NCBI GenBank assembly: GCA_022394755.1
Contig: JAGFCA010000028.1
Location: 3,237-67,236, forward strand
Origin: Candidatus Poribacteria bacterium
GTDB lineage: Bacteria > Poribacteria > WGA-4E > WGA-3G
Length of the DNA stretch: 64,000 bases
Reading direction: 5' to 3'
Shown: piece by piece, positions 7,090 through 51,858 of the stretch
Numbering within the stretch: the stretch's first letter is position 1
Layout: each line of letters starts with the position of its first letter
Notes under the pieces: model-generated
Told to the model about the DNA's origin: nothing
Seen by the model: only the letters and a program-made list of their open reading frames with translations
Databases searched by the model: none
Position numbers and translations under genes: made by a program

Positions 7090-7132
7090 TCTTCTACCTT
7101 TCCATTGTTGTATCCTTCCAATCCTGTATATC

Positions 7133-8225: not shown

Positions 8226-8903
8226 TTACATCCGTTGCATCCTAAATTTAAAAACAAACGTTGTTTGATCACCATTGAATTCACTCGTAACTCGGGGAAC
8301 AATGATCCTTAGGTTTTTCGATTTATTACTCCGTTTTTTAAAATAAACAAAGAATCTGTGTGTGTTTTTCGGCATAATGTTTGTTTTTTTCAAATCTTCA
8401 GTTGGTAGAACTGCCGGATCACCTTGTACACGAATTGTCTTATCCCATCGAAAAACATCTGCTGCGAATTCTGGGGGTAATTTTGGTTTAAAAGACTTTT
8501 TAAAGTAGAAAGAGTGTTGTGATTTATCTATCTGTTTTACGATTTCACCTGATTGGTCAAGCATCTGGCAATCTTCTTTTATTAGACTAACCCAGTGATT
8601 TGTTCTGTTGTGAAGAATGATAGCGAATCCATCAAGATTCTTTACATCGTGGAGAGGAACGGCAATTGCGACGATACCATTTTTGGCATAAATTACAGCC
8701 CCTGTTTGAGGCGTAATATGTGCATCTGGATCAAAAACTGGAACAAGTCGTTCAGGTCTTAAAAAATCATTAATACTATCTGTAAAGGATGCACAGCCTG
8801 TTAAAGTAGTGGAAATAGTTAATATAATTAACATCGTGGAAATATACATTCCAATATTAGATAACTTGTGTCCAGAATTCATCGTTTTACAAAAACACCT
8901 CAT
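8226..8903 (-). CDS. Hypothetical lipoprotein
   Basis: AGGAGG ribosome-binding site upstream of the ATG. The N-terminus has a positively charged region, a hydrophobic stretch and the lipobox LTGC. Confidence 0.55.
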   Translation of the reverse strand: MRCFCKTMNSGHKLSNIGMYISTMLIILTISTTLTGCASFTDSINDFLRPERLVPVFDPDAHITPQTGAVIYAKNGIVAIAVPLHDVKNLDGFAIILHNRTNHWVSLIKEDCQMLDQSGEIVKQIDKSQHSFYFKKSFKPKLPPEFAADVFRWDKTIRVQGDPAVLPTEDLKKTNIMPKNTHRFFVYFKKRSNKSKNLRIIVPRVTSEFNGDQTTFVFKFRMQRM

Positions 8904-8976
8904 TTGATAGTGTTCCTCCTAAAATGTCTTAAATAAATCAGTTGTCAGTAGTCTATTAGAATAATGTGATCCTATT

Positions 8977-9927
8977 CTAATATGCTAACATCGCTGCCCC
9001 CACAAGTCCTGCTTGATTCCCTAATTTTGCAGGAACAATCTCCATGTTACTGGGTATATCCATTGTCCGTTGTTTAAATTCTCTCCGAATATGTTGAAAC
9101 AGTAAACTTTCCCCTGCAGCTGCGATTCCACCACCGATGATAGCAATCTGTGGGTTTAGAATGTGTGCGATTGATGTAAGAGCGATTCCAATGTATCTTC
9201 CTGTCTCAGAATAAATTTGTACAGCCAGTTCATCTCCATCGTTTGCGGCATTCGCAATCTGTTTCGGTGTTAAACTATCAGGATTCAAAGATGTTTTCAT
9301 ATCTTCTGCTATCCGTTGCTGTGTTCTTTCAATAATCCCTTTTGCCCCTGCGTATGCCTCAAGACATCCGAAATTACCGCATCCACACTTACGACCATTT
9401 GGTTGCACAATTGTATGTCCCAATTCACCTGCAGTATTCCAACTTCCGTGGTATACCTGTCTGTTAATAACGACACCTCCCCCAACCCCGGTACCGAGAG
9501 TGAGAGCAATAACATTCTCATATCCTATCCCAGCCCCGTGGTGCAACTCCCCTAATATCATCACGTTTACATCATTATCAATATATAGTGGTAGATCTAT
9601 ATCATCAAGTTCGGTTGATACATAATCCAGTAATGGAATATCTGTCCATCCAGGAAAATTTGGCGAAAAATGTATAATCCCGGAATTTGCGATGATGAGT
9701 CCTGGGGCTCCTATGCCGATTCCAATAATCTTCTTATTTTTTTCAGAATCAGATTCTACGGTATTTATGATCTTTCTGGCAGTTTCTGCAATACGAGTAG
9801 CTATAGGTTTTGCTCCCTCATCTACTTGCGTTGAAACAACCATTCGACAAGAAAGAGAACCGTCTTCACATAATAACCCTGCTTTAATGTCTGTTCCGCC
9901 AAGATCAATACCTATACTATAATTCAT
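8977..9927 (-). CDS. ROK-family sugar kinase (glucokinase / N-acetylglucosamine kinase-like)
   Basis: N-terminal GIDLGGT ATP-binding motif. ROK zinc motif CGCGNFGCLEAY is present. Confidence 0.8.
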   Translation of the reverse strand: MNYSIGIDLGGTDIKAGLLCEDGSLSCRMVVSTQVDEGAKPIATRIAETARKIINTVESDSEKNKKIIGIGIGAPGLIIANSGIIHFSPNFPGWTDIPLLDYVSTELDDIDLPLYIDNDVNVMILGELHHGAGIGYENVIALTLGTGVGGGVVINRQVYHGSWNTAGELGHTIVQPNGRKCGCGNFGCLEAYAGAKGIIERTQQRIAEDMKTSLNPDSLTPKQIANAANDGDELAVQIYSETGRYIGIALTSIAHILNPQIAIIGGGIAAAGESLLFQHIRREFKQRTMDIPSNMEIVPAKLGNQAGLVGAAMLAY

Positions 9928-9942
9928 AGTGGTTGTTTGTTA

Positions 9943-11247
9943 TTAGTTATCAGATATCCATTTTATACGAGCACCGTCACCCGCATTGCATATATAAATC
10001 TGTGGTTCAATGCCAGTGTGTTTAGGATACTCATTATTAACCTTGTTTTGAAATTCATCTACTCTGTCTTGATAGACCAAATTAACAGTGCATCCGCCGA
10101 ATCCTGCTCCTGTCATACGCGCTCCAAAAACACCTTCAGTATTTTTTGCAATCTCAGTCAACAGATCTAACTCATCACAACTTACTTCGTAATCATCCCG
10201 TAACCCTTCGTGAGAAGCATTCATCAAAGTTCCGAAAGTTTCAACATCATTAGTTTTAAGCGCTGAAACGGCTTTCAGAACACGAGTGTTTTCCTCAACA
10301 ACATAACTACACCTCTTTTGTGTAATTTCAGGTAGTTTGTCTTCATATTTTTTAAAATCTTCTACGGAAATATCTCGAAGTGATGTAATAGAAGGCAGCC
10401 ATTGTTGTATTATCTTTACCCCATTTTCACATTCGGACCGTCGTTTATTGTATTCAGATGCAGCAAGTTCCCGTTTGACGTTTGTGTTGCAAATTACAAT
10501 CAGAATATCTGTTAAATTAAGTGGAATGTGTTCGTAATCCAGTGACCGGCAATCTAAAAACAGGGCATGATCCGCTTTACCTAATAATGATATAGTTGGA
10601 TCCATAATACCGCAGTTAACACCCGCGAATTCGTTTTCTGCACGTTGACATATTGAGGCTACTTCAAGCGGAGAACATTCAAGCACTTGAATACCGTTAT
10701 TTGTATTAACACTTGAATGTGGGATTTCTAAACCACACCCCCCTAAAAATGCTAACGTACTTGCCACCTCAAGTGCAGCGGAGGAACTCAATCCTGCACC
10801 AATTGGTACATTCCCTGTAATGACAGCCGTAATTCCATTCAGTGTGTGTTCACTTCCCTGGAGCACCTGTTCTTGTAAGAAATGGGCGACCCCCTTCAGA
10901 TAATTGCTCCAAGGTGGTGTATTTGACTCACGAATAGAGTCCAAATTAAAAACACATTCTTCTTCTACGTCTAATGCGTAAAGATGCACTTCCCTATCAG
11001 ATCTTTGGGAGGCTGCAATATGAAGGTATTTATCAATTGCAACAGGAAATACAAACCCATCATTATAATCGGTATGTTCACCAATTAGGTTTACTCTTCC
11101 TGGTGCAGAAACCATGAATTCTGGTGTATGTCCAAAACATTGATTAAAATCTTGTATCAATCTATTGGTAAAAATAGATTCATCCTGTATCATTCGATTC
11201 CTCGTTGTATGCCTTTGTGTGTATGATGAGACAATAGACTTAGTCAA
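9943..11247 (-). CDS. galK: Galactokinase (GHMP kinase)
   Basis: Galactokinase signature PGRVNLIGEHTDYNDGFVFP. GHMP ATP-binding motif PIGAGLSSSAA. The ATGA overlap with the upstream gene suggests translational coupling. Confidence 0.85.
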   Translation of the reverse strand: MTKSIVSSYTQRHTTRNRMIQDESIFTNRLIQDFNQCFGHTPEFMVSAPGRVNLIGEHTDYNDGFVFPVAIDKYLHIAASQRSDREVHLYALDVEEECVFNLDSIRESNTPPWSNYLKGVAHFLQEQVLQGSEHTLNGITAVITGNVPIGAGLSSSAALEVASTLAFLGGCGLEIPHSSVNTNNGIQVLECSPLEVASICQRAENEFAGVNCGIMDPTISLLGKADHALFLDCRSLDYEHIPLNLTDILIVICNTNVKRELAASEYNKRRSECENGVKIIQQWLPSITSLRDISVEDFKKYEDKLPEITQKRCSYVVEENTRVLKAVSALKTNDVETFGTLMNASHEGLRDDYEVSCDELDLLTEIAKNTEGVFGARMTGAGFGGCTVNLVYQDRVDEFQNKVNNEYPKHTGIEPQIYICNAGDGARIKWISDN

Positions 11248-12008
11248 TTAGATGCGGAAGATGAAAAAAACTTCAAAAAACGTGCTATCACCATGTGCAA
11301 GTCTGACCGAGGAACATAGGTATCCACAGAAATATCTGGCATATTTTGGTTGATATCACGATTTTTTTCAGGTAGGAGTTGTTCTTCAGGCGCATGTAAA
11401 GCAGGCTGGGGATGAGTCCGCGCTGTATTATCTAATTCAGAGGTGCATTCTGCGATGACAATTTCACCGACTGGGAGATGTGACCTCAACTGTCCATTTC
11501 CTGTTTCGGTCAAAACTGTTATATATGGGAGCGATTTATCTGATAATTTCTCTAATTGTAGGAGTAATGGAACAATATCAGGAAAAGAGAGTTTTGATTC
11601 AACAGGATTAGCAGTAAAAACAGAGAGTAATGGAATAGATTTATCTAATGCGGTTAAAATTGCTTCAGAAAACGATTTAATATGGCGTTTTTCCAAAATT
11701 GATTCGTGTTGAAGAATAAATAGACTAACGGAATGTCCACCAATATTCTCCTCAATAGCAAGTACATCGTTGGTGAAATCTTCTGGTGTGTTATCCTCGT
11801 TAATAAACTCTTCTTCATCAGTAGGTTGTATATCTAATAGGAGATTGTGTCTATTTTCAAGCGACAATGGAAACAATTCCTTACACTTTGGACAGATAAA
11901 ACCGTTACGTTTTAATTCTCCTCTGAAAGAAACTTCACTACATTGTGTACATTTATGCCATAAACTGATGTTTTCCTCGGTAATATCGTTATTTCTTATG
12001 TGTTCCAT
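11244..12008 (-). CDS. AccD-like protein: acetyl-CoA carboxylase carboxyltransferase-beta N-terminal zinc ribbon plus degenerate carboxyltransferase domain
   Basis: WHKCTQCSEVSFRGELKRNGFICPKCKELF...RHNLLLD aligns with the AccD C4 zinc ribbon ([38 protein letters not shown]). LPYITVLTETGNGQL corresponds to AccD LPYISVLTDPTMGGV. The glycine-rich catalytic motifs (FMGGSMG, SGGARMQE) are replaced. Confidence 0.6.
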   Translation of the reverse strand: MEHIRNNDITEENISLWHKCTQCSEVSFRGELKRNGFICPKCKELFPLSLENRHNLLLDIQPTDEEEFINEDNTPEDFTNDVLAIEENIGGHSVSLFILQHESILEKRHIKSFSEAILTALDKSIPLLSVFTANPVESKLSFPDIVPLLLQLEKLSDKSLPYITVLTETGNGQLRSHLPVGEIVIAECTSELDNTARTHPQPALHAPEEQLLPEKNRDINQNMPDISVDTYVPRSDLHMVIARFLKFFSSSASN

Positions 12009-12063
12009 AGTGGATCCAATCTATCGGTAAAGCAACAATTATCTACATATTCATATATAGGTG

Positions 12064-12408
12064 TTATTGAAAACTTGCTATTGCTTCAGCCTCTGTATCA
12101 TATCTATCAAAAATTGTTACAAGTTTAGCCATTATAATGAGACTTCTGATGTTGCCACCGATATTAAGTAGCACAACTCTTCCATCATTACGTCGTATAG
12201 AGGCGTATGCGGCTACAATGACACCTAATCCTGAACTATCCATCATCTGTACACGTTCCATATTTAAAATCATGGACACAGGTTCACCTTCAGCAACACG
12301 TATTTGATCATCTATTATGTTTTTTAGTTCTACAGTATTGGGACCTACAAGATTCCCTTCAATATCCAATATAATAACATTACCCTTAATTCTTTGATTA
12401 ATCTTCAT
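12064..12408 (-). CDS. STAS-domain anti-sigma-factor antagonist (SpoIIAA/RsbV-like)
   Basis: Size of 114 aa. DSSGLGVIV phosphorylatable-serine region typical of the STAS domain. Confidence 0.8.
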   Translation of the reverse strand: MKINQRIKGNVIILDIEGNLVGPNTVELKNIIDDQIRVAEGEPVSMILNMERVQMMDSSGLGVIVAAYASIRRNDGRVVLLNIGGNIRSLIIMAKLVTIFDRYDTEAEAIASFQ

Positions 12409-12542
12409 AAAACTTCCTTTCTCTTACATATTTCTTGGCAGGGGCAATCGTACCGACAGATGGATGAATGTAGTTGTCAAGCAAAATACATGCTATAAAG
12501 ATAGGTCCATAGACGTAAAGCAAACCGTGTATGAGTAAAACT

Positions 12543-12968
12543 TTAATTGTCGGTTTGTCTATATTTCACCATCTTGACAACGGTACCGTCTGCCTCGTAA
12601 CCTACCTCATCCATGTAGGCTTCCATAAGAAAAAGGCCTCTCCCACTGCTTTTGAGTAGGTTTTCTGGTTCAAGTGGATTTGCGACATCTTCGCGTTGAA
12701 ACCCTGAGCCTTCATCTGTTATGATAATCGTAAGTTGGCTATCGTCAATAAGGAATTCAAATGTTGCTGTCTTATCCACATCTTCCTTATTACCGTGCTT
12801 GATTGCATTTGTCCCTGCTTCAATAACAGCTAAATTTACATGCTCTTGCGTTTCCTCATCAAACTTCATCTCTCTAAGTAAGTCGGTGATGACAGTGTCG
12901 AGTAAATAAATTAGATGCATTGTGCTTGGGAGAGAAAGTAATATTCTCCATTGAGTTTTCTCGCCCAC
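12543..12968 (-). CDS. Anti-sigma regulatory factor, Ser/Thr protein kinase (RsbW/SpoIIAB-like, HATPase_c)
   Basis: LAVIEAGTNAIKHG N-box. IIITDEGSGF G1 box. Size of about 140 aa. Confidence 0.75.
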   Translation of the reverse strand: MGEKTQWRILLSLPSTMHLIYLLDTVITDLLREMKFDEETQEHVNLAVIEAGTNAIKHGNKEDVDKTATFEFLIDDSQLTIIITDEGSGFQREDVANPLEPENLLKSSGRGLFLMEAYMDEVGYEADGTVVKMVKYRQTDN

Positions 12969-13065
12969 GTGTTAGGCTCCTTCCAGATGTTAATAATTCA
13001 ATTTAGATTATACCATAGTAAATACGTCTTACTGTATACTAATATGCTATTTGTAACAATTCTAC

Positions 13066-14307
13066 CTATTCTTCAATTCGCTTAATTACAACTACAGCGC
13101 GATCATCCTTGAGTTGTGTGGTACCGCTATATTCCATTAAATCGGTTTGGAGAGCATCACATAGCCCTTCAGCAGAGCAATTAAGTTTTTCTGACATACG
13201 CTCAATCAGCCGTTCTTCACCATAAAATTCATTTGGGGTTTTCCCTTCTGTTTCAGTCACACCATCTGTATAAAGCATCAAGACATCGCCATGGGATAAT
13301 TGACAAGTTGCCGACGAAAATGTGGCAATATCAAACGCACCTATCAACATCCCACCGGTATTGAGTAAATCTACTTGATACCTATCTTTTGAAGATTCAT
13401 CATTATTGTTTGTACCGTTGATAAAATGAATCGGTGGACAATGTCCTCCATTTGAATATGTAAAAGCACCTGTTCGTATATCTAATATACCGTATACCAT
13501 TGTTGCAAATTGTTCAAGATCGGTATTATGAAAAAGTAATGTGTTAATCCGTTTCAAAATTGTCGCTGGACTATCTGCCTCATTACTAAGTAAACGTGAT
13601 GCCGTCTGAATCATAACCATGAGCAGTGCAGCAGGAATTCCATGCCCTTTCACGTCCCCCAATACCACACCAAGGCGAGACTCTCCAAGCGGAATAAAAT
13701 CATAAAAGTCACCGGAAACAGAGGTAGAACTTCGAAACATTGTAGCAAAGTCATATCCTGGAATCGTTGGTGGTTTTTCCGGTAGCAGTCTCTCTTGTAT
13801 TTCTGCAGCTGCTTGCAGATGAGATCCGAGTTCAGCGACCCCTGCTTCTGTAAATCCTTCCCCCATAGCATTAATCAAAGGGTTAATATACTTTACAGGA
13901 CGGGTTCGACCTAAAACAGTGTTAATTCTTGCGGTCACCTCACGTAAATCAAACGGTTTTGTAATATAATCATCGCCACCAAGTTCTAATCCAACCAATT
14001 TGTCTTCGGTCTGTGTACGGGCAGTTATCCATAAAACGGGAATTGAATTTGTCTCATTATCTTCTTTTAACTTCCCGATAACCTCTAAACCGTCCATTTG
14101 TGGCATCATGACATCAAGCAATATCAGATCTGGTTGGTCATCTTTTGCAAGTTGGAGACCGGTTAGCCCATTATTAGCAGTAATGACTTGGAATCCATCT
14201 GATGTTAAACTTATTTTCAGGAGTTCAAGTATATCAGTATCATCATCAATTACTAAGATGGTTTCATTTGTTGATGCTTCTTCAGATTGGAAAATAGTTT
14301 CTGCCAT
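13066..14307 (-). CDS. Response-regulator receiver domain fused to PP2C/SpoIIE-type phosphatase (RsbU-like)
   Basis: REC motifs ILVIDDD...DLILLDVMMPQMDG...YITKPF. The C-terminal PP2C region is SGDFYDF...GDVKGHGIPAALLM. Confidence 0.8.
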   Translation of the reverse strand: MAETIFQSEEASTNETILVIDDDTDILELLKISLTSDGFQVITANNGLTGLQLAKDDQPDLILLDVMMPQMDGLEVIGKLKEDNETNSIPVLWITARTQTEDKLVGLELGGDDYITKPFDLREVTARINTVLGRTRPVKYINPLINAMGEGFTEAGVAELGSHLQAAAEIQERLLPEKPPTIPGYDFATMFRSSTSVSGDFYDFIPLGESRLGVVLGDVKGHGIPAALLMVMIQTASRLLSNEADSPATILKRINTLLFHNTDLEQFATMVYGILDIRTGAFTYSNGGHCPPIHFINGTNNNDESSKDRYQVDLLNTGGMLIGAFDIATFSSATCQLSHGDVLMLYTDGVTETEGKTPNEFYGEERLIERMSEKLNCSAEGLCDALQTDLMEYSGTTQLKDDRAVVVIKRIEE

Positions 14308-38241: not shown

Positions 38242-38730
38242 ATCTACTATCCTTTTGCATATTAATTATTGAAGAACCCCTTCAAAGAGGAGTTCTTCAA
38301 TATAGAACAGTTGTTTACTCGGTAATATCAACCGCTTCATCTACACTATTAAATGTCACATCATTCTCAATAAAATAATGATCTTCTCCATTAGGACCTG
38401 ATACGACAAGACGAACATACGCACTGGAAGTGTAACTCTGCATATTAAGATCGACACCATAATGCGTTATGGAATTACTATTTGAATATGATCCAAAATT
38501 AGGACCGATACGTTTCGCTTCGACTTGACCGTCCTCATTTTTCGGTTGTTCCTTTTCTTTTACCTCGCGTCCCGTTAATACATGTCTACAACGGGAGTAA
38601 ACTCTTCTCCTTTTGATACCTTTCTGGTACCATTATTTCAATCAATATCTGAGACATTGATTTGAAGGAAAAGTACTATATTTTAGCACATCTCCCGTTT
38701 ACAGCAAACAAAACGTCATTGAATACGCTA

Positions 38731-38979
38731 TTACCGTTTGCTATTTTGGAATAGCGACACACCGAAATGCTCACGCACTTTCCTAATAATCACACGTTTG
38801 CGCGACTTCACTGTGCTTTCTGGAATGCCTAACTTCTCACCGATTTCAATGGAAGTCCATCCTTCAAACCATAATTCAATGACCATCTTGTATATAGAAT
38901 TCATTTTATCAATTACCTCAAATATAAAAAGTGTAACTTTTTTCATATTTTCGTTGCACAGACAATACAACAACAGCAC
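38731..38979 (-). CDS. Stand-alone sigma-70 region-4-like HTH protein (possible truncated ECF sigma)
   Basis: ELWFEGWTSIEIGEKLGIPESTVKSRKRVIIRKVREHF matches sigma region 4.2. There is no region 2 upstream. Confidence 0.45.
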   Translation of the reverse strand: MLLLYCLCNENMKKVTLFIFEVIDKMNSIYKMVIELWFEGWTSIEIGEKLGIPESTVKSRKRVIIRKVREHFGVSLFQNSKR

Positions 38980-39274
38980 GATCTTCTGACTGAGTATTTA
39001 GGATTAAATCTCTGTTTTTATACCTTATTTTTTGTCTGTATATTAGGATTAAATGTTTGTTTTGATACCTTTTGACCATCAGAAATATCAGTTATTAAAC
39101 AGGATTCTCTACGTGAAATATGTGTAATCCACGTAATCCAACACAAGATAAGCGAATTAATGTCAAACTTTACATACCCTGAATCTTGATTTCTATTGAA
39201 TCAAAACGACTAATTACCTATAATGTACAGCAAAAGTTATCTACATATATATAAAGAACAAGGACGGTCTGATA

Positions 39275-41944: not shown

Positions 41945-41960
41945 TAGGAGGAATAGTTGA

Positions 41961-43040
41961 ATGTCAACACCGCAATTCTTATTTACTCGTAACCCTGGTT
42001 TAGAACGTTCATGGCCCTTCGTCCACGAACAGATGGTAAAACGTCTGGAAAACTTAGGCGTAACCCTCGTCCTCAACACAACCAGCCAAGATCCTATCCA
42101 TCAACAGGTGGATCTCAGCGAAGTTATCGGAATTTCACAATGGGGTGGCCGCCTCACTGATGAGTGTATAGATAACGCACCAAAACTCAAGGTCGTCGGT
42201 ACAATGACAGATAACACAGGACACGGTATCCCGTATGCAAAATGTCAAAGTCGTGGTATACCGGTGATTGAATCCACACGAGCTTGGTCACAATCTGTAG
42301 CTGAGTGTGCATTCGGTCTTGCATTGTCTTCGTTACGCCGTACAGCACAATGGCATATGAAGATGGCTACCGGTGAAAAACTGTGGGATTGGGAGAACCC
42401 TATTTGGGGACCTCAAAAATTACCCGTTGCACATCAATACTGTGATGATCCTGATTTTGTCAACGGGGATCTGGGTACCAAGCAGATCGGTGTTATCGGT
42501 CTTGGACAAATTGGTGGAAAGATAGCGAAATGGTGTAGTGTATTCGGCGCAACCGTTATGGGTTTTGACCCGTACGTACCAGATGAACTTCTTGCTGAAT
42601 GGGATGTAGAACGTGCTGATATGGACACACTGGCTGATAGAGCAGATATTGTTTTTGTTTCTGTCCCTCCAACACCATCCGCTCGCCATCTACTAAACCG
42701 TGAACGTATTGAACGTCTACGTAAGGGTGCGTTAGTTGTTATTATTACACGTGCACATGCTGTTGATATGGAAGCTTTGCGTGAACGGATTGTAAAAGAC
42801 GAACTCGCTGGTGCGTTTGATGTTTATGATAGGGAGCCAGTACCAATTGATGACGAACTTCGGAACCGGGATAACGTCGTTCATACACCACATATCGCAG
42901 GTAGGACTGAGGATTCGAATTTACGTGTTGCTGATATGATTGTTGACGATTTTGAACGTGTACTAAAGGGAGAAAAACCTCTTGGTGCGTTAACACTAGA
43001 GGCAATTAAGGTTCGTACGGCTGATAATCCGAATGAGTAA
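41961..43040 (+). CDS. D-isomer-specific 2-hydroxyacid dehydrogenase (NAD-binding)
   Basis: Rossmann motif GVIGLGQIGGKIA. Catalytic R..E..H region VHTPHIAGRT. AGGAGG ribosome-binding site. Confidence 0.85.
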   Translation: MSTPQFLFTRNPGLERSWPFVHEQMVKRLENLGVTLVLNTTSQDPIHQQVDLSEVIGISQWGGRLTDECIDNAPKLKVVGTMTDNTGHGIPYAKCQSRGIPVIESTRAWSQSVAECAFGLALSSLRRTAQWHMKMATGEKLWDWENPIWGPQKLPVAHQYCDDPDFVNGDLGTKQIGVIGLGQIGGKIAKWCSVFGATVMGFDPYVPDELLAEWDVERADMDTLADRADIVFVSVPPTPSARHLLNRERIERLRKGALVVIITRAHAVDMEALRERIVKDELAGAFDVYDREPVPIDDELRNRDNVVHTPHIAGRTEDSNLRVADMIVDDFERVLKGEKPLGALTLEAIKVRTADNPNE

Positions 43041-43435
43041 GGTTGATTGTATAGTAGTAGGCATGCTCCGTGTGCTGTAAACCCGTTGTATGGAATGCGG
43101 ATGGAGTGTGTCTATGATGTTTTATGAAACGGAAAATAGCGGTTACGGATTTTTTACCTGTTTATGACAAGTAATACAAAGTATGTCATACCTTCTAAAA
43201 AGTGTATGAACAAACCGTGGGATACAAATGGCAAGACACCTTTACAACCACAAATGTTTTAATATAGGAAAGACAACAAAATTATCCGTTTGTAAACAGT
43301 TAATTATCGTTTGTGGTTGATGTTGTAGTATTTTAAATGTATAATAAGACTTACGGAATGTCTATTAAAACAAAATTAATCTTCATATTATACCCCTTCA
43401 TATAATATAGTGTCTTTTATAAAAAGGTTAGTGTT

Positions 43436-44533
43436 ATGAATGCATTGTCAAAAGATAATAAATCCGTAGTTATTTCTGCTGTGGATCTATTTTGTGGTGT
43501 TGGCGGTCTGACTTATGGTCTCCACAAATCAGGTATAAACGTAGCTGCTGGAATAGATGTTGACCCAACGTGCCGGTATGCATACAACAAAAATAATGAA
43601 GCTGAGTTTATTGAACAAGACATTCGTGAAATAACAGCTGATGATCTTAACGATTTCTATCCAGAAGGTCATCTCAAATTACTCGCTGGATGTGCCCCAT
43701 GCCAACCATTTTCATCTCTACCTAAGAATAGAAGACAACCTGCACAAAATGATGAAAAATGGAACTTACTATCTGAATTTGGGAGACTGGTTGAAGAAGT
43801 TGTACCTGAACTTATCACATTTGAAAATGTTCCGCCAATTCGGCATCAGAACATATATTTAGAGTTTCTTGATAAATTGAAGTCTCTTGGTTATAAATTT
43901 GATTCCGATATAGTTTACTGTCCCAATTATGGAGTTCCACAGATACGGCGTCGGCTTGTTGTTATAGCCTCTATCTTGGGGAAAATCGATCCTCTTTGTG
44001 AAACACATTCACCGTATGGTCACAATGGTTTAGAACCTTATTCAACCGTTAGAGATACAATAGGGAATCTCCCTAATATTGCTGCGGGGGAAAAGTGCGA
44101 AACTGATAAGTTACATGTATCACCAAGACTCTTAGATAAGAATATTGAACGAATTAAACAATCAAAACAAGGTGGAACATGGGACGATTGGCATAAGGAC
44201 CTACTTGCACCATGTCATAAAAAAGCGTCCGGACAAACTTATAAGTCTGTTTATGGACGTATGAAATGGGATGAACCTTCACCTACGATAACAACACAAT
44301 TTCATAATTATGGTAGCGGTCGTTTTGGGCATCCTGAACAGAATCGAGCCCTTTCAATTCGAGAAGGAGCTCTTTTGCAGACATTCCCGAAAGATTACGA
44401 ATTCGTTGATCACGATCATCCCGTTCAGATTCTCCAATTAGGAAAACATATTGGAAACGCTGTCCCTGTGAAACTTGCAACTACCATCGGCTATCATATA
44501 CAAGATCATGTAAAGGATTATTATCATGATTGA
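43436..44533 (+). CDS. DNA (cytosine-5)-methyltransferase (Dcm family)
   Basis: Motif I DLFCGVGGL. Motif IV GCAPCQPFS. Motif VI ENV. Motif VIII QIRRRLV. C-terminal motif X GNAVPV. Confidence 0.9.
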   Translation: MNALSKDNKSVVISAVDLFCGVGGLTYGLHKSGINVAAGIDVDPTCRYAYNKNNEAEFIEQDIREITADDLNDFYPEGHLKLLAGCAPCQPFSSLPKNRRQPAQNDEKWNLLSEFGRLVEEVVPELITFENVPPIRHQNIYLEFLDKLKSLGYKFDSDIVYCPNYGVPQIRRRLVVIASILGKIDPLCETHSPYGHNGLEPYSTVRDTIGNLPNIAAGEKCETDKLHVSPRLLDKNIERIKQSKQGGTWDDWHKDLLAPCHKKASGQTYKSVYGRMKWDEPSPTITTQFHNYGSGRFGHPEQNRALSIREGALLQTFPKDYEFVDHDHPVQILQLGKHIGNAVPVKLATTIGYHIQDHVKDYYHD

Positions 44534-46517
44534 AGAAAAATATGAAATGAGTATTACCCTTAATGTCTTGAACCACCTCGGGATCAATCTTTACAGTAAT
44601 GTTCCTGCCGTTCTGTCTGAAGTTGTCGCTAATTCTTGGGATGCAGATGCATCAGTCGTTAACATTAAGATTGAACCTAAGTCAATTACCATTACAGATG
44701 ACGGTCATGGCATGGATGAAGTGGATATAAATAAAAAGTATCTCAACGTTGGATACAAGAAACGTGATGATACTAAAGTAACTGCTAAATTCAATCGTCC
44801 AGTAATGGGGAGAAAAGGTATAGGTAAACTCTCGCTCTTCTCTATTGCAGATACTATTGAAATACATACCGTGAAATCAGGAAATAAGTACGGATTTCGG
44901 ATGTCTGCCAAAGATATTGAAAACCTGACAGAACAGAATAATAGAAATAAAGAGAATAAATCATACTATCCGGAATCTTTGGATGACACTCATATAACTT
45001 TAGACGATAATGGAACTAAAATTGTTTTAACAAATATAAAAAAACGTACTTCAAATCTTGAATCCTATTTGCGTAAACGAATAGCACGCAGATTTAGTAT
45101 TATCGGGGACGAATATACCTTTTCAGTTAATATAAACGGTGAACCAATACAGATCACAGATAGGGACTATTTTCATAAAATGCGGTATTTATGGTACTTT
45201 GGAGATAAAAGTGAAGAATATATTGATTTATGCCAATTAGAAAAGGATGAATTCGCTGAGAAAATAGATGGAGCAATTGATATAGAGGGGGATACTCAAC
45301 ACTCAGTAACAGGTTGGATTGGAACCGTGCAGAAATCTGGGGATCTTACAGACAAAGAAGGGGATGAAAATCTTAATAAAATAGTGATTATGGTTCGTGG
45401 AAAACTTGCACAAGAAGATATCCTTGAAGACTTTAGGGAAGGCGGTCTTTATACAAAATACCTAATCGGTGAAATTCATGCAGATTTCCTTGACCAGAAT
45501 AATGAACCTGATATTGCAACCAGCAACCGGCAAGAAATCATCAAAGATGACCCTCGATATTTAGCTCTTCGAGATAGGGTTAATAGTGCATTAAAAATAA
45601 TTGAAAAAAAATGGTTGGCGCGTCAAAAGAAAAAAGGAGTAATTGACGCAAGAAAGATACCCGCAATCGATAAATGGTTGGATACCATGAGAGGTGACAA
45701 GAAGGAGAATGCGGAAGCTATTTTAGGTAAAATTGGTCAACTTGAATTAGACGATCATCAGCGGGTTGATCTATATAAGCATTGTGTTCTGGCTTTCGAA
45801 AATCTAATGTATAGAGAAAGGCTTTCAATGCTTGAAAACTTGACTCCTGAAAATTCTGCTGAGATAACCAAGATATTCGCTGAACATGCGGACGTTGAAG
45901 CTTCACACTATTATAAGATAGTTAATGAGCGACTCCATGTAATTGAAGTCTTTAGTAAACATGTTGAGGACAATGTTCTTGAAAAAGTAATACAAGAATA
46001 TCTTCCAAAACATTTCTGGTTACTTGATCCTTCATGGGAAAGAGCCAGTGATCATATGTATATAGAGCAAAATGTTACGACTGCATTTGATGTAATTAGT
46101 GAAAAGTTAACCGATGAAGAGCGTAAAGGACGAATTGACATCAGATATAAAAAAATGGCAGGACAAAACGTCATTATAGAGTTGAAGCGTCCGGGTGTTA
46201 AAATTAGTGAATCTGCATTATGGGAACAAGTTAGTAAATATAGAACTGCTTTGGAAAAACAACTTAATTTGATAGGTGCTGGTGATGATCCTATTGAAAT
46301 ACTCTGTGTTGTTGGTGAAGAACTCACAGATTGGACGACCACACAAAATCGCCAAATGTCAAAGGATAGTCTTGATAGGAAAAATACGCGTGTCTTACTT
46401 TATAGGGAACTCATTCAAGAAGCATATCAGAGTTATAAAGAATTTTTAGAAAAGAAAGAAGACGTTGGAAGAATATGTGAACTTATCAAAAATATTGATA
46501 TTGAATTTAGCACATAG
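44526..46517 (+). CDS. GHKL (HATPase_c_3 / MORC-MutL-like) ATPase with C-terminal PD-(D/E)xK nuclease-fold domain; candidate restriction/defence component
   Basis: Bergerat-fold boxes: N-box EVVANSWDADAS, G1 TITDDGHGMD and G2 GRKGIGKLS. C-terminal RIDIRY...IIELKRP (D...ExK) motif. The start overlaps the MTase stop by 8 nt. Confidence 0.75.
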   Translation: MIEEKYEMSITLNVLNHLGINLYSNVPAVLSEVVANSWDADASVVNIKIEPKSITITDDGHGMDEVDINKKYLNVGYKKRDDTKVTAKFNRPVMGRKGIGKLSLFSIADTIEIHTVKSGNKYGFRMSAKDIENLTEQNNRNKENKSYYPESLDDTHITLDDNGTKIVLTNIKKRTSNLESYLRKRIARRFSIIGDEYTFSVNINGEPIQITDRDYFHKMRYLWYFGDKSEEYIDLCQLEKDEFAEKIDGAIDIEGDTQHSVTGWIGTVQKSGDLTDKEGDENLNKIVIMVRGKLAQEDILEDFREGGLYTKYLIGEIHADFLDQNNEPDIATSNRQEIIKDDPRYLALRDRVNSALKIIEKKWLARQKKKGVIDARKIPAIDKWLDTMRGDKKENAEAILGKIGQLELDDHQRVDLYKHCVLAFENLMYRERLSMLENLTPENSAEITKIFAEHADVEASHYYKIVNERLHVIEVFSKHVEDNVLEKVIQEYLPKHFWLLDPSWERASDHMYIEQNVTTAFDVISEKLTDEERKGRIDIRYKKMAGQNVIIELKRPGVKISESALWEQVSKYRTALEKQLNLIGAGDDPIEILCVVGEELTDWTTTQNRQMSKDSLDRKNTRVLLYRELIQEAYQSYKEFLEKKEDVGRICELIKNIDIEFST

Positions 46518-46936
46518 AACATGATGTTAGGAGTGGTAAATTATTTGATATTTTCAATAAAAAAGACAATCCTTTATTGATTTAAATGTATAAAATTAGA
46601 GGTTCATGTAGAGAATAAGTGCTAATAGAAAACAAGAATACCCATGTCCATTGACTTCGCTGAAAATGTTCGCACTCAATTCATACATGAGCGAATTAGA
46701 ATATTAACAATGAAAAGAAATCAGTAAGTTTGTAAAGACAGTTTGAGACAGTTATAAACCTTGTTCACTTTGAAATATGGATATTAAGTGACATTGGAAG
46801 GACAAGAATTCGGCTAATGTTTATAACAAAATATATGCAATCCGACCCGTAAGAGATATAATCGGAAACCCAGAATATCAGACAGTTTTGCAAAAGTGTA
46901 ATTATATCAAAGAGTGAGGCTGTTGAATGTTTATAT

Positions 46937-48184
46937 TTACTTGGAATCCTCTGCATAAGGCACAAGCACATCATCCACCGAACGCGTATTGGGAAACCAT
47001 CCAACTATCTTACGCAACACCTCATCAAGGAGGATATCTGGACAAGACGCACCCGCAGTCAAAACAATGTCGACAGGAAGTCTATTCGGTTTTTCAGTTA
47101 GCAGCCAATCCTCCGTCAACTGAACCTTTTTTGTTTCAAGACTCAGATGGCGAATCTGTACTGGACTGATTAACTCATCAGCGTCTCGTACAAAGTAGGT
47201 TGGAAGTTTATGTTCGCACAGTTCCACCAGATGACTCGTATTCGAGGAATTATATCCACCTACTACAACTGCTACATCTCCACCTTCAGCAATCAACGCT
47301 AACGTTGCATCTTGATTCTCTTTTGTTGCGTAGCACAATGTATCCTTTGTATCAGCAAAATGTTCTGCCAGATTAGCTTCACCATAACGTAGGACAATAG
47401 CTTTTCGTAATAAATCTGCAATCGCCTGTGTTTCAGTAGCAAGCATCGTTGTTTGATTAACAACACCGACCCGTTTTAGATGTAAATCTGGATGGAAACC
47501 TTCCGAATATCGGTCAGCAAACTTTGCAAAGAAAAAATCAGCATCTGCTTCTCCGCTAATTACTTTCGCAAGGTTTTCTGCTTCAGCAAGATCACGAACA
47601 ACAACAACAGGAGCTTCTGATTGAGCATGTGAAAAAGTGGCACGGGTCTCTTCATGGTATCGCTTACCATGAACAACAACCGTATAATCTTGCTTACCGA
47701 TTTCTTGACTACGTTTCCACACCTTTTCAACGAATGGACATGTAGTATTATAGGACGAGAGGGTAACACCGCGATTGTTGAGTTCTTCCTCAACCTCTAA
47801 CGTTGTCCCAAAGGCAGGTACAATTACGACATCGTCAGGGATTAACACATCAAACGGTAGTAACGGGTTTCCCTCTGTATCAGAGAGAAATTGTACACCG
47901 TGATGTCGTAAATTGTCGTTAACACGAGGATTATGAATTATTTCAGAGAGAAGGAATATTCGTTTATCAGGATTCTCTTCAAGGGCACGATAAGCAATCT
48001 CTACAGCGTTTTCGACTCCATAACAGAATCCGAAGTGGCGTGCAATCTTAAAACGAACAGGTCCAAAATCTAAAACGGAGGGGGATAGATCCCGTTTACG
48101 GGCATCCATATTTCGCCGTGATGCCTTAACGGTCGATATGATTGGACTTTCATAAAAACGAGGTATGTTAAATGTACGAGGCAT
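46937..48184 (-). CDS. ispH: 4-hydroxy-3-methylbut-2-enyl diphosphate reductase (long cyanobacterial/plant-type form)
   Basis: HFGFCYGVENAV (Cys1 region), conserved His in the catalytic site, and the C-terminal Cys region SSNTSHL. The N-terminal extension may start internally at MDARKRDL. Confidence 0.85.
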   Translation of the reverse strand: MPRTFNIPRFYESPIISTVKASRRNMDARKRDLSPSVLDFGPVRFKIARHFGFCYGVENAVEIAYRALEENPDKRIFLLSEIIHNPRVNDNLRHHGVQFLSDTEGNPLLPFDVLIPDDVVIVPAFGTTLEVEEELNNRGVTLSSYNTTCPFVEKVWKRSQEIGKQDYTVVVHGKRYHEETRATFSHAQSEAPVVVVRDLAEAENLAKVISGEADADFFFAKFADRYSEGFHPDLHLKRVGVVNQTTMLATETQAIADLLRKAIVLRYGEANLAEHFADTKDTLCYATKENQDATLALIAEGGDVAVVVGGYNSSNTSHLVELCEHKLPTYFVRDADELISPVQIRHLSLETKKVQLTEDWLLTEKPNRLPVDIVLTAGASCPDILLDEVLRKIVGWFPNTRSVDDVLVPYAEDSK

Positions 48185-48202
48185 CTTTGTTCCGAAGCAG
48201 CT

Positions 48203-48337
48203 TTAGGCACTTAGGACTCTTCTACCTTTAGCGCGTCTGCGGGCAATGGTTTTTCTTCCATGCCGAGTAGACATACGTTTTCTAAATCCGAGTTTATTTT
48301 TTCGTTTCCGCCTATGCGGTTGATAGGTACGTTTCAT
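48203..48337 (-). CDS. rpmH: 50S ribosomal protein L34
   Basis: Manual translation gives [44 protein letters not shown] (44 aa). It is too short for the ORF track. It lies divergent from dnaA. Confidence 0.9.
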
Positions 48338-48813
48338 TACTCTTATCCTTTCTATTGCTTAACTTTTTGGCACCGCATGGAATATTGATTTAACGCAATC
48401 AGCAACAATAAGGATACCCAATTTTTCTCATTTTGTCAAATTATTCTGTTTAGAGAATCGTTATCAATTCCGTAAAAGCAACGTTAGTTATAATGATTTG
48501 TATAAAAACTATAAGATTTAAGCATGCGAGCACACCCATTTAGAATGTAATTATCAAACCAAAACAGACCATAATTTTACTTTTTTAAACAAAATTGTGG
48601 AAAGGATTCAGTTAGAATCCCGCTTAATTCCTACTACAAAATTTCTGAAAAAATAGGGCGTAAAAAGACCTTATTTTTTAATAAAAAATTACGCTGTTTT
48701 AATTTGATAATTAAATTTAATTCTGTATAATTCACGTTCGCGTCGTTAAGATTTGATTGGAAATATCCCAACTAATTACAGCTGTAATATTATAAATAAA
48801 TAGGAATATTCTC

Positions 48814-50148
48814 ATGAATCAGAACCCTGATAAACTCTGGTTAGATATCTTAGAGGATCTTGACGATTCTGCTGACGATGATGTCTATTTACGTCAAGCA
48901 AGACCTCATACTCTCACCGAAGATTCCTTCATCATAGCTGTTCCTTCTACATACACACAGGCTGAAATTGAGAATAGATATCTCAAGAATATTGATAAAT
49001 CATTAGCTGATCGAATGGGTGTAGACTGTACATTAAAATTTACCGTTGAACCACCACTTGAAAGTGAGACGGCATCCGAAGAACCAAAACCGCCTTCTCA
49101 AAACGGATCTTCTGAATCTGCCAGTTTAAATCCAAACTACGTTTTCGACAATTTTATTGTTGGGCAAAGCAATCGTATATGTCATGCAACTGCGTATTCA
49201 GTTTCAGATGACCCGGGCGCGGAGTATAACCCACTTTTTATTTATGGTGGTGTTGGACTTGGCAAAACACATTTATTACATGCTATTGGCAACAGAGTAC
49301 AGGAAAAAATACATGATTGTAAAGTTCTTTACGTCACCTCTGAGACCTTTATGAACGAGTATATTGAATCTATTGTCAAACGCACTTCAGCACAAGATTT
49401 CCGGAACAAATATCGTAAAACCGATCTACTATTAATTGATGACATTCAGTTCTTACAACGCAAAGAAGGTACACAAGAGGAATTTTTTAATACTTTCAAC
49501 GATCTGTATTTAAACTCAGGGCAAATCGTTTTGTCAAGTGACCGTTCACCAAGCATGCTTGAGAATCTTGAAGAGAGATTAAGCTCACGGTTTGAATGGG
49601 GTATGGTGGCGGAAATCGATAAGCCGAATTATGAGTTGAGACTGGCAATTCTACGAGGCAAATGTCAAGAACAAGGTCTGGATGATATTTCTGATGAAGT
49701 TCTAAATTATATAGCAGAAATCGTCACATCGAACATCCGTCAATTGGAAGGTACATTATTAAGCCTTAATACACGAGCGTCCTTTCTCGGTGAAAAGTTA
49801 GATCTCGATTTTGCACGCTCAGCACTAAACGATACATCAACTCGGAGCGGATCACGTCGTAAAGCAGTAACTGCTGCAGCTATACAACAAATGGTAGTAG
49901 ACCACTTTCACTTGGATAAGGATGACCTACTTTCTGCCAAACGGACTAAGGCTATAGCCTTCCCACGACAAGTCGCAATGTATTTATGCAGAGAACTCAC
50001 ACAACTTTCATTATTAGATATTGCTGAAGCATTTCATAGACAAAACCATACAACAGTAATACACGCATGCACACAAATAGAAAAATTAAGTTCTGAAGAT
50101 GAAGATACAAAAAAATTAGTAAATATGTTCATGGATGAGTTGACTTAA
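48814..50148 (+). CDS. dnaA: Chromosomal replication initiator DnaA
   Basis: AAA+ Walker A GGVGLGKTHLL. Sensor motifs and C-terminal DnaA-box-binding HTH (HTTVIHACTQIEK). Confidence 0.95.
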   Translation: MNQNPDKLWLDILEDLDDSADDDVYLRQARPHTLTEDSFIIAVPSTYTQAEIENRYLKNIDKSLADRMGVDCTLKFTVEPPLESETASEEPKPPSQNGSSESASLNPNYVFDNFIVGQSNRICHATAYSVSDDPGAEYNPLFIYGGVGLGKTHLLHAIGNRVQEKIHDCKVLYVTSETFMNEYIESIVKRTSAQDFRNKYRKTDLLLIDDIQFLQRKEGTQEEFFNTFNDLYLNSGQIVLSSDRSPSMLENLEERLSSRFEWGMVAEIDKPNYELRLAILRGKCQEQGLDDISDEVLNYIAEIVTSNIRQLEGTLLSLNTRASFLGEKLDLDFARSALNDTSTRSGSRRKAVTAAAIQQMVVDHFHLDKDDLLSAKRTKAIAFPRQVAMYLCRELTQLSLLDIAEAFHRQNHTTVIHACTQIEKLSSEDEDTKKLVNMFMDELT

Positions 50149-50149
50149 C

Positions 50150-50627
50150 CTGCTCCCTGCCTAAGTTCTAAGGCTATAAACACATGTTATGCACAATTGC
50201 TGTGCATAACTCCTAAATTCTTGTTGATAACTTGTTGATAACTTGTTGATAACTTCACTCGCGATAATTGTATTAACAAATTGTCAATAATTACAAAATT
50301 GAATACACATGTTATCAACACCCCTAATCTCAAATACCATAAACGATTAGAGCAGTTATCAACTTATGCACACCCCCTACTACTACTGCTAATTACAATT
50401 TTAAATTATATGTAATTATTAATATAATTAATATAGGTGAATAATTACGAAATAGATAATTTTAAATTTAGGTTGTAGATAATAGGTATATTTGCAAGCA
50501 ATCATTATGGTATAGTTTATTAGTTGATATGAGATTTTTTTGAATGACAAGTTTATATAGTAAGGAAATTTCAAAATCTTATATTAAACTGAAGATAAAT
50601 ATATACACCCAAACGAGTGGAGTTTAG
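50150..50627. promoter_or_regulatory. Probable oriC: DnaA-box cluster plus AT-rich DNA-unwinding element
   Basis: Three tandem CTTGTTGATAA units (TTATCAACA boxes) at 50221-50256. Further boxes TGTTATCAACA, GTTATCAACT and inverted TTATGCACA/TGTGCATAA. An extremely AT-rich tract follows at 50390-50480. Confidence 0.7.
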
Positions 50628-51788
50628 ATGTACCTTGAACGATTGTGCTTGCGAAATTTTAGAAATTATCAGGAGTGCGACATAACATTTCATTCCCCAG
50701 TAACCTTGATTGTTGGTAGAAACGCTATGGGGAAGACAAGCCTACTGGAATCTGTATATTTTCTGTGTACCGGTGAATCCCACCGATCTAATACCGCAGC
50801 AGAGTTAATACGTCATAATACTGAAGGGTTTGCTGTTACAGGATATTTCCAAAGTGATAAAAGACCAGGTACACATATCCGGCTTGAAGCAGTTAAACCA
50901 CGACAAGGTCCGTTTCGTTTAAAAACTGATGGTGTTCTCCAACGGAGACGCTCGGATTGGATAGGACAGTTCAATGTAGTCGTTTTCTCACCAGAATCAT
51001 TGGATCTTGTAAAAGGATCTCCGACATTCCGCAGACGATGGATTGATTTACTCTTATGTCAATTAAATCGTGAGTATTTAGATGAACTGCAACGGTATCG
51101 TGGAATATTGCAACACCGGAATGCGTTATTAAAACAGTTGAGTATAGGGAAAGGTGTTGCTAATGAGGTGTCTGTATGGGATGGATTACTAATTGAATCC
51201 GGAGTCGCTTTAATTGGGGCTCGATTTACTGCCTTGAAACGTGTAAGTGTTGTTGTGGAAAATACCCATCTATCGTTGACAGGTGGAATGGAACGGTTAA
51301 TATTGGAATATATCCCCGGAATAGAGAATGGTGGAGAGGCTATATCAGATATAACTAATCTAACCGAACATTTTCGTGAAGCAGTAACAAAAGCTCGTCG
51401 TGATGAAGTGCGTCGGGGTGTAACCCTTGTTGGTCCACATCGTGATGATTTTACATTGGCATTAGAGAAAGTAGATGCTGAAGATGAAAAATTACGAGAA
51501 ACAGCTCGTACCTATGCCTCACAAGGACAACATAGGACAATTGCCCTTGCTTTAAAACTTGCTGAGTTAGAGTATATAAGAGAAGATACTGGAAGTGCTC
51601 CACTTTTCCTTTTGGATGATGTTTTATCTGAATTGGATGTAAAGAGACGAGCGTATCTATTATCCTATCTTCAAGGGGTTGCTGCCCAAACAGTTATTAC
51701 CGCTACCGATAAAGATGTTATGGGAGACGAACTACCAGATGTTCACCTGTTAACGGTTGAAGAAGGTGTCATCGTAGATGGAAGTTAG
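50628..51788 (+). CDS. recF: DNA replication and repair protein RecF
   Basis: Walker A GRNAMGKTSLLE. ABC signature and D-loop LLDDVLSELD. Confidence 0.95.
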   Translation: MYLERLCLRNFRNYQECDITFHSPVTLIVGRNAMGKTSLLESVYFLCTGESHRSNTAAELIRHNTEGFAVTGYFQSDKRPGTHIRLEAVKPRQGPFRLKTDGVLQRRRSDWIGQFNVVVFSPESLDLVKGSPTFRRRWIDLLLCQLNREYLDELQRYRGILQHRNALLKQLSIGKGVANEVSVWDGLLIESGVALIGARFTALKRVSVVVENTHLSLTGGMERLILEYIPGIENGGEAISDITNLTEHFREAVTKARRDEVRRGVTLVGPHRDDFTLALEKVDAEDEKLRETARTYASQGQHRTIALALKLAELEYIREDTGSAPLFLLDDVLSELDVKRRAYLLSYLQGVAAQTVITATDKDVMGDELPDVHLLTVEEGVIVDGS

Positions 51789-51858
51789 AACGTTGAAAAC
51801 AGTAAATTTATACTAATACTTGTCATGCCATAATCATATATTGGATAAGGTGTATTAA

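Follow-up and report, generated by a model that had tools for sequence, protein, structure and literature searches.

A mobile gene pair near ispH and the replication origin of a Poribacteria genome, a probable type II restriction-modification system of the BbrUII/HgiDII family

Results and Discussion

Organization of the gene pair

The window (the whole 64,000-nucleotide stretch of DNA that was analysed) carries two overlapping genes on the forward strand, M for a C5-cytosine DNA methyltransferase (MTase) and R for a 663-aa protein. They are flanked by the genes for a 2-hydroxyacid dehydrogenase and IspH/LytB; the genes for DnaA and RecF lie farther out. The sequence is that of a MAG, its host being a sponge symbiont of the Poribacteria. 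The following features were located:

43125..46953, no strand: variable 3.8-kb islet holding the M-R pair, delimited by blastn against L083 (GCA_003635315.1)
43317..43345, forward strand: sigma-70-like promoter candidate (TTGATG-17-TATAAT) some 90 nt 5' of the MTase start, on weak evidence from a consensus scan
43436..44533, forward strand: M, C5-cytosine DNA methyltransferase gene (365 aa, ORF call)
44526..44533, forward strand: 8-nt overlap ATGATTGA, the R gene start inside the M gene end, read from the sequence
44526..46517, forward strand: R, BbrUII/HgiDII-family type II restriction endonuclease gene (663 aa, by NF050001.1 and PADLOC REase_II)

The original prediction, in which the 663-aa open reading frame starts 8 nt inside the stop of a Dcm-type MTase and the pair lies between a 2-hydroxyacid dehydrogenase gene and ispH, was exact for both frames, the overlap and the neighbours. 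The junction reads CAT GAT TGA, the ATG of R being at 44526 and the TGA of M at 44531-44533, and AAGGA is found 8-9 nt 5' of the R ATG. R would be translationally coupled to M through this overlap. The sigma-70-like consensus scan of the region gave 20 sites for 16.3 expected, which is not significant, and the counts of the terminator scan were likewise at chance level. No gene for a controller (C) protein was found in the spacers of the islet.

The methyltransferase

M matched PF00145 (1e-56), TIGR00675 (128 bits, cutoff 100.65) and PADLOC MTase_II (2.7e-87), and its C5 motifs were all intact:

43490-43507, forward strand: FCGVGG motif
43697-43705, forward strand: PCQ motif
43823-43831, forward strand: ENV motif
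43940-43954, forward strand: QIRRR motif
44453-44467, forward strand: GNAVP motif

The top PADLOC model for the MTase was DrmMII of DISARM class 2. This system was rejected, as neither drmA, drmB, drmC nor drmE lies beside the MTase and the islet consists of two genes only, with 2-Hacid_dh, IspH, DnaA and RecF as neighbours. Across 60 linked MTases the target-recognition region (aa ~226-300) was conserved as strongly as the catalytic core, which is consistent with a specificity shared among them.

Domains and active sites of R

R is a member of the BbrUII/HgiDII family. Its aa 6-657 aligned to the full length (positions 1-659/659) of the equivalog profile NF050001.1, 'BbrUII/HgiDII family restriction enzyme', with 777.5 bits for a cutoff of 550. 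PADLOC called REase_II and MTase_II at the locus, two REase_II models matching R at 1e-79 to 1e-91 (best 7.6e-91); PADLOC or DefenseFinder would already assign the locus to RM type II. The domains of R were as follows:

44607..44966, forward strand: GHKL (Bergerat) ATP-binding domain, HATPase_c_3, with E32 (44619), N36 (44631), D58 (44697), G60/G62 and the G95-K101 lid
45108..45530, forward strand: beta-rich middle domain (aa ~195-335), S5-like transducer of the MORC/MutL ATPase module
45552..46025, forward strand: long helical linker or arm (aa ~343-500), from the AF2 model at lower confidence
46038..46454, forward strand: PD-(D/E)xK nuclease domain, NucS/Shedu-like, with E514 (46065), D538 (46137), E552 (46179), K554 (46185) and Q568 (46227)

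All the GHKL and D...ExK motifs that had been predicted are present in the translation: the N-box EVVANSWDADAS (aa 32-43), DDGHGMD (aa 58-64) and GRKGIGKLS (aa 95-103) at the N-terminus, and RIDIRY (aa 536-541) and VIIELKRP (aa 549-556) at the C-terminus. The profile search bore out the first of the two folds, HATPase_c_3 matching aa 28-147 at 2e-18, and the nuclease was recognised by fold comparison. Between them, the AF2 model had helices at aa 343-499 with pLDDT 45-85. In alignments at 53-82% and at 33-51% identity the ATP-binding residues E32, N36, D58, G60, G62 and G95-K101 were invariant. The nuclease active site was also conserved, with E514 invariant and D538, E552, K554 and Q568 found in at least 90% of the sequences of the 33-51% identity alignment.

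R.HgiDII was described as an N-terminal GHKL domain followed by a C-terminal domain (Orlowski & Bujnicki 2008, PMC2441816), and R has the same architecture. [quoted passage not shown] A sequence search of the C-terminal domain of R against the PDB gave no meaningful match, and the assignment was made by fold comparison, in which SduA and NucS were nearest, together with weak Pfam matches across family members. As an addition of the present analysis, this domain is assignable to the NucS/Shedu branch of PD-(D/E)xK nucleases, with an E-D-ExK-Q signature.

Identity with MutL was rejected, since R scored below the cutoff of NCBIfam TIGR00585 (26.2 bits, cutoff 180) and ends in a PD-(D/E)xK domain, with no MutL C-terminal dimerisation/endonuclease domain. 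R differs from the MORC ATPases, eukaryotic and prokaryotic, and from the N-terminal domain of MutL in having its own PD-(D/E)xK nuclease and no CW or coiled-coil region.

Linkage of M and R among homologues

Homologues of R were found in bacteria and archaea, in over 550 species; the family is large, with 640 clusters at 50% identity (E <= 1e-30). A C5-MTase homologue lies directly upstream on the same strand in 59 of the 80 best R loci, which are spread over many phyla of bacteria and archaea, and the commonest junctions at these 59 loci are overlaps of 8, 4 and 14 nt (-8, -4, -14). Plasmids also carry the M-R arrangement, including one with a homologue at just 32% identity. The linkage of M to R is conserved. 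About one quarter of the best 80 R loci are without an adjacent C5-MTase, some at contig ends and others not, and some family members may function without one.

The original prediction had regarded the fusion, joined to an overlapping Dcm gene, as an architecture that matches no characterised R-M type. The NF050001 score, the REase_II call and two earlier studies (PMC2441816; PMC2292703) contradict this. HgiDII of Herpetosiphon and BbrUII/BbrII of Bifidobacterium breve UCC2003 share with the present pair a full-length NF050001 match and an m5C MTase partner; the present pair differs from them in its Poribacteria host, its kinship is by that profile, and its GTCGAC specificity is assumed. The paraMORC3 proteins are GHKL, S5 and RE-fold fusions linked to DCM cytosine methylase genes (Iyer, Abhiman & Aravind 2008, PMC2292703). 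Compared by architecture, R resembles them in its GHKL and S5 domains and its C-terminal RE-fold with E-D-ExK; the association with a cytosine methylase and the sporadic, laterally mobile distribution are likewise common to both. A stand-alone position was reported for many paraMORC3 genes, whereas the HgiDII/BbrUII family is almost always methylase-linked. The design of an enzyme joining ATPase and nuclease was thus already described in 2008, and the locus adds to a known family and is no new system.

A second comparison is with Shedu type I-D, in which VcSduA (GHKL ATPase plus DUF4263 nuclease) has the same domain order as R. This stand-alone nuclease was tested experimentally, and E27A and K557A each abolish its defence (PMC12137116); the ATPase catalytic E and the nuclease K, both needed there, are conserved in R. 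VcSduA differs in being a single gene that lacks a methylase partner and for which no sequence specificity is known. R might accordingly be read as a stand-alone nuclease of this type I-D, VcSduA/paraMORC3-like kind, triggered by infection through its GHKL domain, next to an unrelated or orphan MTase. The identical domain order (PMC12137116), the SduA_C matches in 17 of 20 relatives and the homologous loci with no C5-MTase nearby are in its favour. We consider it very improbable, however, given the upstream and usually overlapping MTase across phyla and on plasmids, the absence of any PADLOC SduA match to R where two REase_II models match strongly, and a curated family, NF050001, that is named for restriction enzymes. 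Membership of R in Shedu (SduA, DUF4263/PF14082) itself was rejected on its SduA_C score, which is below the gathering value (14.4 bits, cutoff 27), on the PADLOC result and on the overlapping MTase.

Restriction or another function

M.BbrII is essential in B. breve UCC2003 (PMC5514069), which implies an active cognate endonuclease against which the methylase protects. In-vitro cleavage by R.BbrII has reportedly never been demonstrated (PMC5514069). Two further functions for the pair were weighed with these data. In one of them M would be accompanied by a repair endonuclease, a MutL-like ATPase with a NucS/EndoMS-like nuclease fixing the T:G mismatches that arise by 5-methylcytosine deamination, in analogy to Dcm-Vsr. 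Recruitment of such proteins to repair was noted as possible by Iyer et al. (PMC2292703), and no Vsr gene was found in the islet. Nevertheless, the prototype R genes adjoin M.HgiDII and M.BbrUII, and the strains that carry them show restriction phenotypes; the essentiality of M.BbrII is better matched by a partner that is toxic through restriction than by one that repairs DNA (PMC5514069); and R-M systems typically have a mobile, patchy distribution like this one, so that a repair function seems highly unlikely.

In the other, R would be a modification-dependent (type IV-like) nuclease cutting foreign methylation patterns, and the methylase would have another role. A methylation-sensing nuclease had also been offered in the original prediction, and a role in reading epigenetic marks has been discussed for MORC and paraMORC proteins (PMC2292703). 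The modified-base reader domains SRA, EVE and PUA were not detected in R, the tightly coupled m5C methylase would make the substrate of such a nuclease in its own host, and essentiality of M.BbrII points to protection by methylation (PMC5514069); this function is considered extremely improbable. The other claim of that prediction, a restriction module protected by its methyltransferase, is supported, and with good confidence the M-R pair is assigned to the type II R-M systems of the BbrUII/HgiDII family.

A variable slot beside ispH

The pair had been described as flanked by AT-rich spacers of about 400 bp, as AT-richer than its neighbours in codon usage and, on these grounds, as horizontally acquired. 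The two spacers measure 395 and 419 bp with GC of 0.32 and 0.30, as described, and are typical of the intergenic DNA of the window, which has many spacers of 300-1000 bp at GC 0.25-0.38. M and R show a mild shift in GC (0.388 and 0.353; window gene mean 0.399 +/- 0.026) and in GC3 (0.249 and 0.276; window 0.304 +/- 0.037), and several other genes within the window are equally AT-rich. Since the deviation is less than 2 sd, the argument for acquisition was taken instead from comparison with related genomes.

By blastn, L083, a closely related Poribacteria genome, aligns at 86-87% identity to positions 41957-43124 and 46954-51798 of the window. Between these conserved flanks the window has the M-R pair, whereas in L083 three unrelated genes fill a stretch of 5.9 kb. 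The closest homologue (79% identity) is in another Poribacteria MAG, in an unrelated gene context. As a further addition of the present analysis, the islet is, judging from this alignment, a replaceable slot between ispH and the 2-hydroxyacid dehydrogenase gene. Horizontal acquisition of the pair is supported, the comparative argument being strong and the compositional one weak. Neither integrase nor transposase genes were found around the islet, and the flanking repeats are short chance-level matches only. The locus appears to mark a hot spot of defence cargo beside ispH and oriC in Poribacteria.

Target site

Experiments have characterised M.HgiDII as an m5C methylase of GTCGAC, and M.BbrUII too is a characterised m5C methylase (PMC5867850; PMC6329791). 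By family assignment GTCGAC is the likely target of the present pair. The window has 9 GTCGAC sites, where shuffles predict 8.5 and a Markov model 5.9, and the site is not under-represented; in 1.0 Mb of the 80 host loci its observed/expected ratio is 0.72, a value shared by many other palindromes. The counts therefore give no independent support for GTCGAC as the target or for long residence of the system.

The pair could also be an inactive remnant, an orphan methylase kept with a decaying or silenced endonuclease gene, a reading with which the lack of GTCGAC avoidance in the window and the MAG origin of the sequence would agree. It is nonetheless thought very unlikely for an R frame that is full length over profile positions 1-659/659, retains all conserved ATPase and nuclease residues and keeps the coupled 8-nt overlap.

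Proposed mechanism

In the favoured restriction-modification reading, the MTase would mark the host copies of a short palindromic site, most likely GTCGAC, and R would cut unmethylated copies in incoming DNA by means of its C-terminal PD-(D/E)xK nuclease (E514, D538, E552-x-K554). The MORC/MutL-like GHKL and S5 module is presumed to dimerise upon ATP binding; DNA would thereby be clamped and the two nuclease domains either joined or licensed, a scheme already put forward for paraMORC3 and GHKL-Shedu proteins. In the literature searched, no biochemical work on the ATPase of HgiDII-family enzymes was found, and for this reason the ATP-gating step rests on analogy.

In this formally type IIP enzyme, all the MORC-like ATP-binding residues are strictly conserved. 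We propose tentatively, as a real possibility that we would not yet favour, that the 'type II' enzymes of the HgiDII family are ATP-gated clamp nucleases, that is, a Shedu/paraMORC3-type GHKL nuclease turned sequence-specific and methylation-sensitive. If so, restriction in vivo would need the MORC-like module to bind or hydrolyse ATP, and such a requirement would account for the failure of standard assays to show BbrII activity. The family would then bridge Shedu immune nucleases, MORC ATPases and classical R-M systems in both evolution and mechanism. The HgiDII family is large and would make a tractable bacterial model for the control of a DNA-acting effector by a GHKL/MORC ATPase. As to annotation, a matter of little weight, R is better labelled as type II R-M of the BbrUII/HgiDII family than as 'ATP-binding protein'.

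Gene Pair and Methyltransferase

Both open reading frames of the original prediction were confirmed at their coordinates in the window, and all the motifs quoted for them were found in the translation:

43436..44533, + strand, ORF1, C5-cytosine methyltransferase (365 aa)
44526..46517, + strand, ORF2, GHKL ATPase/nuclease (663 aa)

The R gene (ORF2) is coupled to the M gene (ORF1) by an 8-nt overlap, the ATG of ORF2 lying within the 3′ end of ORF1 (ATGATTGA) with an AAGGA sequence 8–9 nt 5′ of it. The pair lies between genes for a 2-hydroxyacid dehydrogenase and IspH, after which come those for DnaA and RecF.

Judged by its sequence, ORF1 is a complete C5-cytosine methyltransferase, with matches to PF00145 (1e-56, profile search), TIGR00675 (128 bits, cutoff 100.65) and the PADLOC models MTase_II and DrmMII, and with none of the motifs I, IV, VI, VIII, IX and X missing. 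Among 60 linked methylases the target-recognition region (MTase aa ~226–300) was as conserved as the catalytic core, which is compatible with, without proving, one specificity common to these enzymes.

Family Assignment and Domain Organization of ORF2

The ORF2 protein matched NF050001.1, the NCBIfam equivalog for BbrUII/HgiDII family restriction enzymes, with 777.5 bits (curated cutoff 550) over profile positions 1–659 of 659, as well as two PADLOC type II REase models (7.6e-91 and 8.5e-79). By these profile matches the R-M pair is a further member of a known, curated family. NCBI already lists an identical protein, assigned to a Candidatus Poribacteria MAG and labelled merely "ATP-binding protein". 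The original reading of the pair as an R-M system stood, and its description of the architecture as uncharacterised was contradicted by the NF050001 match and by published work that already covers R.HgiDII, paraMORC3 and GHKL-Shedu proteins. R.HgiDII was described as an N-terminal GHKL domain and a C-terminal domain without fold assignment, and four more GHKL-containing REase subfamilies were named in the same study (Orlowski & Bujnicki 2008, PMC2441816). The paraMORC3 proteins of Iyer, Abhiman & Aravind 2008 combine GHKL and S5 domains with a C-terminal RE-fold domain carrying E-D-ExK, and occur in R-M contexts beside cytosine methylases (PMC2292703). GHKL-Shedu proteins are now a recognised group (preprint 10.1101/2023.08.10.552793), and phage defence by one of them, VcSduA, requires the ATPase glutamate and the nuclease lysine (PMC12137116).

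An AlphaFold2 model of ORF2 was built with 52 homologues as input (mean pLDDT 74.5). The N-terminal module is a GHKL domain (Pfam HATPase_c_3, aa 28–147, 2e-18) with an S5-like transducer, and a long helical linker of lower model confidence (aa ~343–500) separates it from the C-terminal module. A separate model of aa 484–663 (pLDDT 79.4) matched the fold of other PD-(D/E)xK nucleases; the fold of the formerly unassigned C-terminal domain is now assigned. Pfam HSDR_N_2 matched ORF2 weakly (aa 527–584) and 9 of 20 family members, and SduA_C matched 17 of the 20 (best 1.1e-6), the score of ORF2 itself being 14.4 bits, under the cutoff of 27. A precomputed match to Pfam PF28130 was listed for some close homologues (P0058, P0060, P0064 and others).

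In 59 representatives with 33–51% identity to ORF2, residues E32, N36, D39, D58, G60, G62, G95, K97, G98, G100, K101 and E514 were invariant, and D538, E552, K554 and Q568 were kept in at least 90%, indicating strong purifying selection on both active sites. A decayed remnant is unlikely, because the ATPase, nuclease and methylase sites are intact. Of continuing interest is the strictly conserved MORC-like ATPase within a nominally type IIP enzyme. The family nuclease signature, E-D-ExK-Q, parallels Shedu motifs I–IV (preprint 10.1101/2023.08.10.552793). The interpretation of ORF2 as a stand-alone Shedu nuclease is contradicted by the overlapping methylase, which is conserved across loci, and by the failure of ORF2 to match any PADLOC SduA model.

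Proposed Mechanism

M.HgiDII is an experimentally characterised GTCGAC m5C methylase, and M.BbrUII a characterised m5C methylase (PMC5867850; REBASE-derived table, PMC6329791). Transposon mutagenesis of Bifidobacterium breve UCC2003 showed the BbrII methylase gene to be essential, which was read by the authors as proof of an active cognate endonuclease, in vitro activity not being shown (PMC5514069). By analogy with these family prototypes, the methylase would guard a palindrome, probably GTCGAC, whose unmethylated copies in incoming DNA the nuclease would cleave. A nuclease dependent on modification is unlikely, since the search found no reader domain in ORF2 and a methylase is coupled to it. 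In the restriction reading, the GHKL module may dimerise by ATP, clamp DNA and assemble or licence two nuclease domains, as suggested by MutL, MORC and VcSduA. This ATP step is the least certain element, with about an even chance of being correct: if HgiDII was indeed first isolated as a SalI isoschizomer by ordinary type II assays, ATP is not strictly needed for cleavage in vitro.

Distribution

Relatives of ORF2 formed 640 clusters at 50% identity (E ≤ 1e-30), nearly all of 640–700 aa, and were encoded by more than 550 GTDB species representatives from many bacterial phyla and archaea. Of the best 80 loci, 59 had a C5-MTase homologue (34–80% identical) immediately upstream in the same orientation, the commonest junctions being 8-, 4- and 14-nt overlaps. 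The M-then-R arrangement was also found on haloarchaeal, Rhizobium and Burkholderia plasmids, one plasmid homologue, just 32% identical, being flanked by IS5 elements.

An 11-kb locus of an uncultured Cenarchaeum MAG (L064) contained a single C5-MTase homologue (2–979) followed by three GHKL-nuclease genes:

1140–3059, same strand as the MTase, GHKL-nuclease
6001–7932, same strand as the MTase, GHKL-nuclease
9124–11043, same strand as the MTase, GHKL-nuclease

Two more copies in this MAG (L059, L075) had no C5-MTase inside 6 kb; mutual identity of the copies was 71–81%. The Latescibacteria MAG OY282377.1 (L031, L035, L080) carried the whole M+R pair three times, with REases 90–94% identical, which suggests spread via a repeated element. 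Sponge-associated MAGs were strikingly frequent among the hosts of the best 80 loci (several Poribacteria, along with Cenarchaeum, Entotheonella, Poriferihabitaceae and Latescibacteria), a hint of exchange of BbrUII/HgiDII-type R-M systems within sponge microbiomes.

The ispH Slot and its Neighbourhood

The pair is mobile and, as originally suggested, was horizontally acquired; base composition gave weak support and the comparison of related genomes was decisive. Around the pair's closest homologue, found in another Poribacteria MAG at 79–80% identity, the genes are entirely different, and the flanking genes of the window were common to none of the 80 homologous loci. The related Poribacteria genome L083 (GCA_003635315.1; IspH 93% identical) aligned with window positions 41957–43124 and 46954–51798 at 86–87% nucleotide identity, and between these blocks it has 5.9 kb with three unrelated genes where the window has the 3.8-kb R-M islet. 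The cargo, including that of another relative (L084), was:

43125–46953, window, R-M pair
8232–14085, L083, NPCBM/FlgD_ig protein, 271-aa ORF and SNIPE/T5orf172 nuclease
8282–11832, L084, beside ispH, FRG-TPR protein and N6_N4-MTase/Mrr_cat fusion

In related Poribacteria the slot beside ispH thus takes variable cargo, mostly defence genes.

About 3.7 kb from the slot, eight 9-mers that resemble the DnaA box, with one mismatch to TTATCCACA, are clustered at window positions 50187–50482, in an AT-rich spacer (GC 0.28) 3′ of dnaA; 34 such matches were observed across the window, with 23.8 expected. This cluster is probably oriC. Gene strand flips at ~38242–39274, from nearly all minus before 38241 to nearly all plus after 39275, and the sign of the GC skew switches there too; dnaA and the DnaA-box cluster lie ~10 kb away.
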